DNA of 64,000 nt from a phage. Shown in pieces: positions 970 to 2,369 of the stretch; position 1 is the first letter of the stretch, and the number at the start of each line of letters is the position of its first letter. Below the pieces are notes generated by a model, which saw only the letters and a program-made list of their open reading frames with translations, made no database searches and was not told where the DNA came from. The stretch lies in assembly GCA_021683455.1 (NCBI GenBank), contig GCA_021683455.1_3051.1; one strand, written 5' to 3'. Made by a program: the position numbers and the translations under genes.

Positions 970-1045
970 TGGTCGAGGCAGTAGGGATCGAACCTACGAC
1001 CTAGGACTTAGAAGGTCCTTGCTCTTCCTTCTGAGCTATGCCTCG
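970..1045 (-). tRNA. tRNA-Arg (anticodon TCT)
   Basis: Hand-folded cloverleaf on minus strand: acceptor CGAGGCA/TGCCTCG, anticodon loop CTTCTAA, T-arm GGTTCGATCC, encoded CCA. Confidence 0.8.
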
Positions 1046-1049
1046 GATT

Positions 1050-1124
1050 TGGCGGACGTGATAGGATTCGAACCTATAACCAATCGCTTAACAGGCGATC
1101 GCTCTGCCATTGAGCTACACATCC
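1050..1124 (-). tRNA. tRNA-Asn candidate (anticodon GTT)
   Basis: Acceptor GGATGTG/CACGTCC (one G-U), D-arm GCTC..GAGC, anticodon stem ATCGC/GCGAT with loop CTGTTAA, T-arm GGTTCGAATCC, CCA. Confidence 0.7.
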
Positions 1125-1128
1125 AAAT

Positions 1129-1215
1129 TGGTGGGGAGTGATGGAGTCGAACCACCCGAGTCGCAATGACAATGGATTTACAGTCCACACCGCTACCTCT
1201 ACGGGATAACTCCCC
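1129..1215 (-). tRNA. tRNA-Tyr candidate (anticodon GTA), long variable arm
   Basis: Acceptor GGGGAGT/ACTCCCC, anticodon loop CTGTAAA, long extra arm, T-arm GGTTCGACTCC, CCA; D-arm fold is imperfect. Confidence 0.6.
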
Positions 1216-1221
1216 TTAATT

Positions 1222-1296
1222 TGGTGGCCCTGGGTGGAATTGAACCACCATCTGGCGATTATGAGTCGCTTGCTTGAACCTTCCAGCTACAGGGCC
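1222..1296 (-). tRNA. tRNA-Ile (anticodon CAT, as in the T4 AUA-reading tRNA-Ile) or Met
   Basis: Acceptor GGCCCTG/CAGGGCC, anticodon loop CTCATAA, T-arm GGTTCAATTCC, CCA. Confidence 0.7.
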
Positions 1297-1297
1297 T

Positions 1298-1373
1298 TGG
1301 TGCTGATTGACGGAATCGAACCGCCGACCTTCTCATTACAAGTGAGTTGCTCTACCTACTGAGCTAAATCAGC
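1298..1373 (-). tRNA. tRNA-Thr (anticodon TGT)
   Basis: Acceptor GCTGATT/AATCAGC, D-arm TAGCTCAGTAGGTAGAGC, anticodon loop CTTGTAA, T-arm GGTTCGATTCC, CCA. Confidence 0.8.
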
Positions 1374-1378
1374 AAAAC

Positions 1379-1468
1379 TGGCGGAGGCGGTAGGATTTGA
1401 ACCTATGAGTCGCCGGAGCGACTGCCGGTTTTCAAGACCGGTGCATTAAACCACTCTGCCACGCCTCC
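1379..1468 (-). tRNA. tRNA-Ser (anticodon TGA), long variable arm
   Basis: Acceptor GGAGGCG/CGCCTCC, anticodon loop CTTGAAA, long variable arm, T-arm GGTTCAAATCC, CCA. Confidence 0.8.
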
Positions 1469-1474
1469 AAATAT

Positions 1475-2125
1475 TTATATATTGTTAATTTGATTTAGAA
1501 TTCTTTTTGCTTGAGTATGACTTACGCCAATATGCTTAGCATATTTAGATAATTCACCACGCTTAGAAAAATCATATAATTTAGAAATTTCTATTCTTCT
1601 TTTTCTTTCATCCGCAGAAACTTTTGCTTCGTTTGCTTTTGCTATTTTACGTTTAGCTTCTTGAGAATGAGTTTTACCAGCAAAGCCGTTCTTCATTAAT
1701 CCATTTGAAGACCATCCTTTTAATTTTCCGTTAGAATGTGCCTTTTTAACACCCAATGAAATTAATTCGCGTTGCTGATCTGTCATAGGATAATTATTTA
1801 TATGATCCCATCCACCTTCACCTCCAAGTTTTAAATTATACACATCTGGTCTATTTAAAAACTCTTCTGTGACAATATTTTTCTCGGCTTCAAGCATAGA
1901 TTCTTTATCGTCAAAATACTCTAATATTTCTTTAGAAAAATTTTCTATACCATATTTATCTTGGGCTCTTTTTAATAATTTACCAGAACCCATATATCCA
2001 TCATCTAAATTTTCGGTAGAATGCACACCAATATAAATTTTATTATTAATTTTATTTGTTATTTTATAAAGATAAAAATGCATATCAGTCCCTAATAAAG
2101 AACTGAGCGTCTCACGACGAGTCAT
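1475..2125 (-). mobile_element. segB: GIY-YIG homing endonuclease SegB, inserted inside the tRNA cluster (216 aa)
   Basis: N-terminal GIY-YIG module (FYLYKITNKINNKIYIGVHST..GYMGSG); sits between the two tRNA subclusters as T4 segB does. Confidence 0.8.
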
Positions 2126-2129
2126 AAAT

Positions 2130-2203
2130 TGGAGCGGATAATGAGAATCGAACTCACATCATCAGATTGGAAGTCTGAGGTAATACCATTATACGATATC
2201 CGC
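2130..2203 (-). tRNA. tRNA-Gly (anticodon TCC)
   Basis: Acceptor GCGGATA/TATCCGC, anticodon stem TCAGA/TCTGA with loop CTTCCAA, T-arm GAGTTCGATTCTC, CCA. Confidence 0.8.
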
Positions 2204-2208
2204 AAATT

Positions 2209-2295
2209 TGGTGCGAGAAGTGGGACTCGAACCCACAAGGAAATCATTCCGCAGCATTTTAAGTGCTGTGCCTTTACCAATTTGACCATTCTCGC
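2209..2295 (-). tRNA. tRNA-Leu (anticodon TAA), long variable arm
   Basis: Acceptor GCGAGAA/TTCTCGC, anticodon loop CTTAAAA, long variable arm, T-arm GGGTTCGAGTCCC, CCA. Confidence 0.8.
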
Positions 2296-2296
2296 G

Positions 2297-2369
2297 CTGG
2301 GAATAAAGGACTCGAACCTTTGCATCTAGCAGTCAAAGTGCTATGCCTTACCAACTTGGCTAATTCCCA
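2297..2369 (-). tRNA. tRNA-Gln (anticodon TTG), no encoded CCA
   Basis: Acceptor TGGGAAT/ATTCCCA, anticodon stem TAGCA/TGCTA with loop CTTTGAC, T-arm AGGTTCGAGTCCT. Confidence 0.75.

Follow-up and report, generated by a model that had tools for sequence, protein, structure and literature searches.

A predicted mosaic endonuclease of the SegB family in the place of tRNA-Pro in a T-even phage tRNA operon

The contig GCA_021683455.1_3051.1 (NCBI GenBank assembly GCA_021683455.1) is phage DNA of 64,000 nucleotides, and this whole stretch is called the window here. Its minus strand carries, from ~2370 to ~630, the tRNA operon of a T-even phage (Tequatrovirus), in which a free-standing GIY-YIG endonuclease gene of the SegB family lies between tRNA-Gly and tRNA-Ser. 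Compared with phage T4, the operon differs by two endonuclease-cassette polymorphisms, one at the site between tRNA-Ile and tRNA-Arg (Ile/Arg) and one at the site between tRNA-Gly and tRNA-Ser (Gly/Ser). The explanation that we regard as probable is that a mosaic member of the SegB family at the Gly/Ser site spreads by homing, and that tRNA-Pro was lost with this spread.

A CASSETTE IN THE PLACE OF tRNA-Pro

ARAGORN, run on the full 64-kb window, called nine tRNAs in total, which lie within 970-2369, are encoded by the minus strand throughout and have anticodons at standard positions; as a cross-check, all nine scored above the gathering threshold of Rfam RF00005 (29 bits), eight of them at 55.8-74.1 bits and tRNA-Tyr marginally (Table 1). 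In the direction of transcription the order is Gln, Leu, Gly, the GIY-YIG gene, Ser, Thr, Ile(CAU), Tyr, Asn and Arg, followed by the stable RNAs rnaD and rnaC. An earlier note on this DNA had listed the same nine in the same order, with Tyr and Asn as candidates, and had found no tRNA-Pro. Both statements hold: the Tyr and Asn genes are among those called, and ARAGORN called no tRNA-Pro in the whole window. It had also been right that the arrangement departs from that of T4, whose reference reads Gln-Leu-Gly-Pro-Ser-Thr-Ile-segB-Arg-rnaD-rnaC.

The limits of the difference at the Gly/Ser site are sharp. Homology (BLASTN) to T4, to T2 and to an endonuclease-free locus from IMG/VR (L008) stops at 2125, 5 nt past tRNA-Gly, and resumes at 1469, 1 nt before tRNA-Ser; between these breakpoints the window holds a 655-bp cassette, and the three relatives an 80-bp tRNA-Pro segment. 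An intact open reading frame (ORF) fills the gap between tRNA-Gly and tRNA-Ser, with its stop codon 6 nt before tRNA-Ser (not 7 nt, as first counted). On the left, the 3' CCA of tRNA-Gly is followed directly by ATTT, and the resulting junction, CCAATTT after a tRNA, is the same in the window and T6 cassettes. This junction coincides with the position of published SegB cleavage, just after CCAR at tRNA 3' ends (PMC2330249).

The other layouts used for comparison show how variable this operon is. T2 reads Gln-Leu-Gly-Pro-Ser-orf137-Ile-Tyr-Asn-Arg; T6 reads Gln-Leu-Gly, a Pro/Thr hybrid, then Ile-Tyr-segB-Arg; and locus L008 carries eleven tRNAs (Gln-Leu-Gly-Pro-Ser-Thr-Ile-Tyr-Asn-His-Arg). An exact-pattern scan of IMG/VR, aimed at the 3' end of the T-even tRNA-Gly, returned only two loci, of which L008 is one; two loci do not suffice to survey a population. 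Against these relatives, the earlier remark that the endonuclease sits where a tRNA would be expected proves right: the gene occupies exactly the place of tRNA-Pro in relatives that lack it. The segB of T4, by way of correction, lies between Ile and Arg, not beside Pro and Ser.

The reverse polarity, with the endonuclease ancestral between Gly and Ser and tRNA-Pro inserted later in the T4 and T2 lineages, is so improbable that it hardly enters the argument. The Gly-Pro-Ser junction is found in 439 GenBank phage records, against 55-56 with the cassette, and a relative in the genus Jiaodavirus has the order Gly, endonuclease, Pro. In addition, the point where the window ORF diverges from that of Klebsiella phage Mineola falls at tRNA-Pro, with 17 A/T-rich bases in its stead, which looks like a deletion of tRNA-Pro.

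Some of the neighboring variation in these layouts deserves a record of its own. In T6, the gene annotated as tRNA-Thr (L007 3143-3217; AP018814 66642-66716) is a fusion that begins as tRNA-Pro, with its 5' end TCCGTGTAGCTCAG, and goes on as the body of tRNA-Thr, and ARAGORN makes no call there; the structure suggests a deletion of the 3' part of Pro, all of Ser and the 5' part of Thr by recombination in common D-loop sequence. T2 has orf137 (L006 2809-3210) where tRNA-Thr would be, a 133-amino-acid ORF that has no GIY-YIG domain but whose C-terminus shows 41.5% identity to the helix-turn-helix-like tail of the window endonuclease; orf137 probably represents a relic, or a variant, of some other endonuclease of the tRNA cluster. 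Close relatives, namely RB18 (L003 1333-1408), AR1 (L004 1847-1922) and L008 (4355-4430), have one more tRNA, a tRNA-His that separates Asn from Arg, and a 116-amino-acid ORF after Arg; the window has neither, and RB68 has the 116-amino-acid ORF, between tRNA-Arg and rnaD, with no tRNA-His.

A MOSAIC MEMBER OF THE SegB FAMILY

The product of the cassette gene belongs to a recognizable family. It matches the GIY-YIG domain PF01541 at 26.8 bits (Pfam cut-off 22.6), the homing endonuclease family phrog_314 at E = 2e-54, and TIGR01453 over residues 5-194 at E = 2e-12, a score below that model's own cut-off. The coding sequence likely starts at the ATG at 2083 and encodes 202 amino acids. This start is preferred because the purified, active SegB of T6 begins with the same MHFYLYK, and the RefSeq annotation of RB68 uses the same start. 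An in-frame ATG upstream, inside the leader (2123-2125), is less likely to be the true start: it has no Shine-Dalgarno sequence, it lies 4 nt past the tRNA-Gly CCA, and T6 has the same ATG and yet its SegB starts at MHFY. Within the leader, a hairpin at 2085-2106 covers an AGGGA Shine-Dalgarno-like sequence; with a predicted energy of -14.5 kcal/mol (z = -2.3) it is modest against the stronger hairpin of T4 (-19.4 kcal/mol).

Identity along the gene is divided sharply in two. Positions 1795-2069 are 99.3% identical to T4 segB over 275 nt, above the 89-96% of the flanking operon, and positions 1795-2138, leader included, are 97.4% identical to T6 over 344 nt. The corresponding N-terminal part of the protein is ~97% identical to T4 SegB, a near-identity that spans ~100 residues. 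In a sliding-window comparison, the leader and catalytic module run at 0.93-1.00 identity to T6 and T4, and after ~1795 the value drops from ~1.0 to 0.2-0.5; BLASTP against T4 SegB finds no similarity past residue 131 of the 216-amino-acid form of the ORF. The linker that follows (~1795-1620) is unlike every comparator in the sliding-window comparison, and the last ~45 codons return to 0.80-0.93 nucleotide identity, this time to the endonuclease of phage Mineola (Jiaodavirus).

As judged by these alignments, the endonuclease is a mosaic, with the catalytic half of SegB and a different C-terminal half, and it is not the orthologue of T4 segB. The earlier note had named the gene segB; that name fits only its N-terminal half, and the gene is instead a mosaic paralogue that occupies a second site. 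Orthology is denied because the insertion site is another one and the C-terminal half has no homology to that of T4, so that only the catalytic module is in common. The window ORF departs from the Mineola ORF exactly where the latter enters tRNA-Pro; there the window has the 17 A/T-rich bases and then tRNA-Ser.

An improbable alternative holds that the gene is a defunct relic, as the label "truncated SegB-like protein" in the GenBank records of RB51 and RB68 would have it, that tRNA-Pro went by an unrelated deletion, and that the layout, passed on by descent, is no more than a frozen accident. It can draw on T6, which lost Pro and Ser with no endonuclease at that site, apparently when the Pro and Thr genes recombined, and on T2, whose orf137 is an apparent relic with C-terminal homology only. 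Yet the window gene is a full-length ORF with an intact GIY-YIG domain, and in its catalytic module it hardly differs from the active T4 and T6 enzymes. Its C-terminal half is not a truncation but a complete alternative domain, with 67% full-length identity to the Mineola endonuclease. Among the 56 phage records that carry this domain at ≥95% amino acid identity, 53 have it at ≥99%; the ORF is intact, and no frameshifts are reported.

DISTRIBUTION AMONG SEQUENCED PHAGES

Record counts come from BLAST searches of the GenBank phage collection, in which 1052 records have any match to the 1.9-kb region. The 56 records with a C-terminal domain of the window type include 55 in which the endonuclease directly abuts tRNA-Ser without tRNA-Pro, the 56th being split by record ends; in this collection, no Tequatrovirus combines the window-type endonuclease with tRNA-Pro. 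Taken with the 439 records that have the Gly-Pro-Ser junction and with L008, this amounts to a presence/absence polymorphism of the cassette among collinear close relatives, the empty site being Gly-Pro-Ser. The T4-type C-terminal half of segB is found in 67 records, with ~53 more at 80-90% identity (those sampled covering 78% of the query), and the Tyr-Asn pair in 396. The SegB catalytic module is present in 182 records at 183 places, so that endonucleases of the Gly/Ser type and of the Ile/Arg type almost never share a record.

The layout is thus an ordinary variant of the T-even operon, already known from deposited and annotated genomes in which a SegB-like endonuclease stands with tRNA-Tyr and tRNA-Asn. 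The one under-described element may be the domain-swapped paralogue of SegB between Gly and Ser: within limited literature access, no paper describing the mosaic endonuclease or its link to the loss of tRNA-Pro was found.

THE Ile/Arg SITE AND THE tRNA REPERTOIRE

At the second site it is T4 that has changed. Phages T2L, RB1 and RB3 are without segB and have extra tRNA genes (Brok-Volchanskaya et al. 2008, PMC2330249). In T4 × T2L crosses, segB is found in 94-99.6% of the progeny, and a ~1250-bp T2L block with tRNA-Met(CAU), Tyr, Asn and Arg is excluded (PMC2330249). The recognition site of T4 SegB is 27 bp long and based on the T-loop motif GGTTCRANTCC; the one that the enzyme prefers lies in the tRNA-Asn of segB-less phages (PMC2330249). 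The Ile-Tyr-Asn-Arg block of the window (970-1296) is 97.9% identical to that of T2, and T4 has segB at that position. The tRNA-Tyr and tRNA-Asn of the window thus represent the segB-less allele, and T4 is derived for both because its segB replaced them (PMC2330249). To count Tyr and Asn as species added relative to T4, as had been done at first, turns the history around.

Phage tRNAs can matter for defense, and the clearest published case concerns one of the genes found here. The tRNA-Tyr of T6, detected by northern blot and functional, counters Septu, which cleaves tRNA-Tyr; T4, without tRNA-Tyr, cannot escape (Chihara et al. 2026, PMC13096335). Overexpression of T6 tRNA-Tyr rescues infection under Septu, and deletion of the tRNA region sensitizes T6 (PMC13096335). 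In the same phage, SegB drives tandem amplification of a Tyr-segB unit; the purified protein is an active nuclease (residues Y17/G19), with cleavage peaks that fall inside tRNA genes at the segB locus (PMC13096335). The earlier suggestion that the tRNA set bears on defense therefore has published support for tRNA-Tyr in T6 against Septu, and for Tyr only (PMC13096335).

From this it could be argued that the repertoire changed adaptively, with Pro lost and Tyr and Asn gained or kept for host range or against tRNA-targeting defenses, and with the endonuclease a bystander. The anti-Septu effect of T6 tRNA-Tyr and the failure of T4 without it (PMC13096335) speak for such a reading, the window tRNA-Tyr matching that of T6 at 85 of 87 positions, and the retention of the Tyr-Asn pair in 396 records fits selection for keeping it. 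We nonetheless consider it unlikely as the cause of the present layout. The breakpoints coincide exactly with endonuclease cassettes, loss of Tyr and Asn in T4-type phages was experimentally driven by SegB homing, and no gain event is needed because an endonuclease-free state with eleven tRNAs exists (L008). The same layout, moreover, occurs in phages of varied hosts (E. coli K-12, B and O157, Shigella, Citrobacter and Serratia).

The proposal in the earlier note that the changed set reflects a different host or defense environment fares poorly for similar reasons, given the 55-56 GenBank phages with an identical layout, the 396 with Tyr-Asn and the 439 with Gly-Pro-Ser; nor does the idea of a repertoire tuned to the host hold, the immediate cause being the presence or absence of homing-endonuclease cassettes. 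The codon-usage check that had been suggested likewise gave nothing in its favor: in 48 long ORFs of the window, CCA makes up 45% and CCT 39% of proline codons. With CCA still at that share, codon usage gives no hint of an adjustment to the missing tRNA-Pro(UGG).

HOW THE CASSETTE MAY HAVE SPREAD

The preferred explanation, homing of the mosaic endonuclease with loss of tRNA-Pro, can be laid out as follows. At the Ile/Arg site, the window phage has kept the segB-less Ile-Tyr-Asn-Arg block of the T2 type, including the tRNA-Asn that T4 SegB prefers to cut. At the Gly/Ser site, the 655-bp cassette stands in for the 80-bp tRNA-Pro segment of endonuclease-free relatives. In a mixed infection, we infer, the enzyme is active and would cut the endonuclease-free allele at or near a tRNA 3' end, either at the junction between the Gly CCA and Pro or in tRNA-Pro itself; recombinational repair would then copy the cassette in, and tRNA-Pro would be lost as a consequence, on entry of the cassette or shortly after. 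The history looks like an insertion between Gly and Pro, followed or accompanied by the deletion of Pro.

Several points weigh against this explanation. The C-terminal variant of the window is known from its sequence, and its cleavage, homing and target are putative. Its match to NUMOD3 falls just under the cut-off (20.1 against 20.4 bits), the Mineola homologue scoring 24.0. A single-sequence AlphaFold2 model has a mean predicted local distance difference test (pLDDT) of 53 and a predicted template modeling score (pTM) of 0.29, is confident and helical only at residues ~160-200, and is too poor to confirm a DNA-binding fold. A search of PDB sequences with the single endonuclease sequence gave no match at E up to 1, and a four-sequence profile gave only a weak one, to the I-TevI catalytic domain (1LN0, E = 0.2), with none to the C-terminal region. 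In Mineola the endonuclease still has tRNA-Pro next to it; insertion at the Gly site therefore does not by itself call for the loss of Pro, and the deletion of Pro may have been separate from the insertion. The T6 operon, which is without Pro and Ser and has no endonuclease there, indicates that Pro is also lost by plain deletion. And GenBank annotates the window-type protein of RB51 and RB68 as "truncated SegB-like."

A more specific version, possible but on balance doubted here, sees in the Gly/Ser endonuclease an active natural domain swap of SegB, in which the same module would cut after the tRNA CCA and a new DNA-binding module would redirect homing to the Gly-Pro junction or tRNA-Pro, so that homing would delete Pro. 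Rivalry of endonuclease variants, more than the codon demand of the host, would then set the tRNA content of these phages. If this were true, competition between endonucleases would also decide whether a phage carries the anti-Septu tRNA-Tyr, and hence which tRNA-targeting defenses it withstands.

FEATURES OF THE OPERON AND ITS SURROUNDINGS

The placement of the operon is as in T4, between the trna.2-4 ORFs and e.8, with the Gln-Leu-Gly head, rnaD, rnaC and a terminal hairpin; it is collinear with T4 at 89-96% identity, the window as a whole being ~95% identical to the T4 genome. By analogy with T4, transcription would yield one precursor that is cut up by host RNases, and the hairpin downstream of rnaC is probably the end of the operon.

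Table 1. Features of the tRNA operon in the window, in the order of transcription
Feature	Position	Strand	Evidence and remarks
tRNA-Gln (UUG; ARAGORN ttg)	2296-2369	-	Rfam 66 bits; identical to T4 tRNA-Gln
tRNA-Leu (UAA), class II	2209-2295	-	Rfam 59.3 bits; identical to T4 and T2 genes
tRNA-Gly (UCC)	2130-2203	-	Rfam 65.8 bits; identical to T4, T2 and T6 genes
Endonuclease leader, 46 nt	2084-2129	-	1 nt different from T6 tRNA-Tyr/segB leader
Free-standing GIY-YIG homing endonuclease gene, SegB family	1475-2083	-	202 amino acids from MHFYLYK; ORF can extend to 2125 (216 amino acids)
Catalytic (GIY-YIG) module common to T4 and T6 segB	1795-2083	-	Nucleotide identity
C-terminal half, presumed DNA-binding (NUMOD3-like motif and helix-turn-helix-like tail)	1478-1794	-	Unrelated to the C-terminal half of T4 and T6 SegB
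tRNA-Ser (UGA), class II	1379-1468	-	Rfam 55.8 bits; right junction of cassette
tRNA-Thr (UGU)	1298-1373	-	Rfam 72.9 bits
CAU-anticodon tRNA	1222-1296	-	ARAGORN label Met; identical to T2 "Met" gene (T2-type allele)
tRNA-Tyr (GUA), class II	1129-1215	-	Rfam 30.2 bits against cut-off of 29; 86/87 identical to T2, 85/87 to T6
tRNA-Asn (GUU)	1050-1124	-	Rfam 74.1 bits (highest of the nine); 100% identical to T2 tRNA-Asn
tRNA-Arg (UCU), T2-type isoacceptor	970-1045	-	Rfam 68.1 bits; 1 nt from T2 Arg, clearly unlike T4 Arg
rnaD homologue (T4 species 2 stable RNA)	849-968	-	Local alignment to T4 rnaD, 101 identical over ~116; rnaD in RB68 annotation
rnaC homologue (T4 species 1 stable RNA)	704-842	-	136/139 identical to T4 rnaC
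Intrinsic-terminator-like hairpin and T run	630-653	-	10-bp stem with 7 G-C pairs, then TTTTT

The tRNA with a CAU anticodon is labeled Met by ARAGORN because of its CAT anticodon. Its best full-length match in E. coli is annotated as tRNA-Ile (81.6% identity), and it is most likely, on this resemblance, an AUA-reading tRNA-Ile2 of the lysidine type and not a tRNA-Met; to list it as Ile, as had been done, was reasonable.

In the 3' end of tRNA-Ser (1379-1394), where T4, T2, AR1 and ESh25 read CCTATCGCC, the window reads CCTACCGCC, a T-to-C change private to it that leaves an A:C mismatch as the first pair of the T-stem. The thought that this change could be an immunity or co-conversion mark of endonuclease-bearing genomes was rejected, as AR1 and ESh25 have the same endonuclease and keep the T.

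The window has nine copies of the T-loop motif GGTTCRANTCC, where 0.16 would be expected; seven are in tRNAs and one is in the rnaC homologue. The rnaC copy, GGTTCGAATCC at 716-726, is a perfect tRNA T-arm motif and a potential recognition element of the SegB type outside tRNA genes. The only other copy in the 64 kb, GGTTCAAATCC at 26815-26825 on the minus strand, lies far from the cluster, at a place where ARAGORN calls no tRNA.

Beyond the hairpin, a 36-nt direct repeat of the terminator (66-101 and 621-656, 92% identical) brackets a ~520-bp insert without a T4 counterpart. The insert carries an ORF on the minus strand at 106-579 (157 amino acids, phrog_2280), with no match in Pfam or NCBIfam, and looks like a gene cassette put in at the rnaC terminator.

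IMPLICATIONS

The locus is a clean natural example of how the SegB family remodels the T-even tRNA cluster. Each SegB variant stands directly after a tRNA 3' end and is accompanied by loss of adjacent tRNAs: Pro in the window, Tyr and Asn in T4, and Asn in T6. The endonuclease allele could affect sensitivity to tRNA-cleaving defenses, because T6 tRNA-Tyr counters Septu. A common catalytic module with alternative, presumably DNA-binding tails would also make a convenient system for studies of GIY-YIG retargeting.

COMPARISON WITH KNOWN SYSTEMS

Among the closest known counterparts is T4 SegB (NP_049745; PMC2330249), likewise a free-standing GIY-YIG endonuclease in a T-even tRNA operon, encoded immediately after a tRNA 3' end, and likewise accompanied by the loss of adjacent tRNA genes. 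The two differ in the C-terminal half, which in the window protein has no detectable similarity to that of T4 except for a NUMOD3-like motif; in the site and the tRNAs displaced, the T4 gene lying between Ile and Arg in place of Tyr and Asn and the window gene between Gly and Ser in place of Pro; and in the leader and its hairpin. T6 SegB (BBF63551; PMC13096335) is nearer in its 46-nt leader, 1 nt apart, as well as in its N-terminus, MHFYLYK, and its left junction, CCAATTT. It has a C-terminal half of the T4 type, however, and T6 segB lies between Tyr and Arg and replaces Asn only; amplification of tRNA-Tyr has been shown in T6 only.

The same endonuclease abutting tRNA-Ser without tRNA-Pro is found, among other phages, in RB51 (FJ839693), RB68 (NC_027979), RB18 (MH553563), AR1 (AP011113), ESh25 (ON528735) and ECML-134, where the locus has the same order of genes (Gln-Leu-Gly-endonuclease-Ser-Thr-Ile-Tyr-Asn-Arg) at 96.6-99% nucleotide identity, and RB68 has the same nine tRNAs together with rnaD and rnaC. 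These relatives are not identical to the window, RB18 and AR1 having the added tRNA-His and 116-amino-acid ORF, RB68 this ORF, and the window its private change in tRNA-Ser.

The Mineola endonuclease (YP_010096117) resembles the window protein at 67% amino acid identity over its full length, has a homologous leader and lies directly after tRNA-Gly. Unlike the window, Mineola keeps tRNA-Pro, with the endonuclease stop codon inside it, and the catalytic half of its gene is only ~60-80% identical in nucleotides. The tRNA regions of T2L, RB1 and RB3 (PMC2330249) represent the segB-less allele that the window shares at the Ile/Arg site, with the difference that T2 keeps tRNA-Pro, lacks tRNA-Thr (orf137 being there instead) and is without a GIY-YIG gene among its tRNAs. 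Finally, I-TevI, the endonuclease of the T4 td intron, has the same two-part plan, an N-terminal GIY-YIG domain joined by a linker to a C-terminal region that binds DNA and has NUMOD3; in the window protein this region is presumed to bind DNA, and its motif is NUMOD3-like. The matches of the window protein to the I-TevI catalytic domain and to TIGR01453 lie under curated thresholds. I-TevI is encoded in an intron, and the window gene is free-standing.

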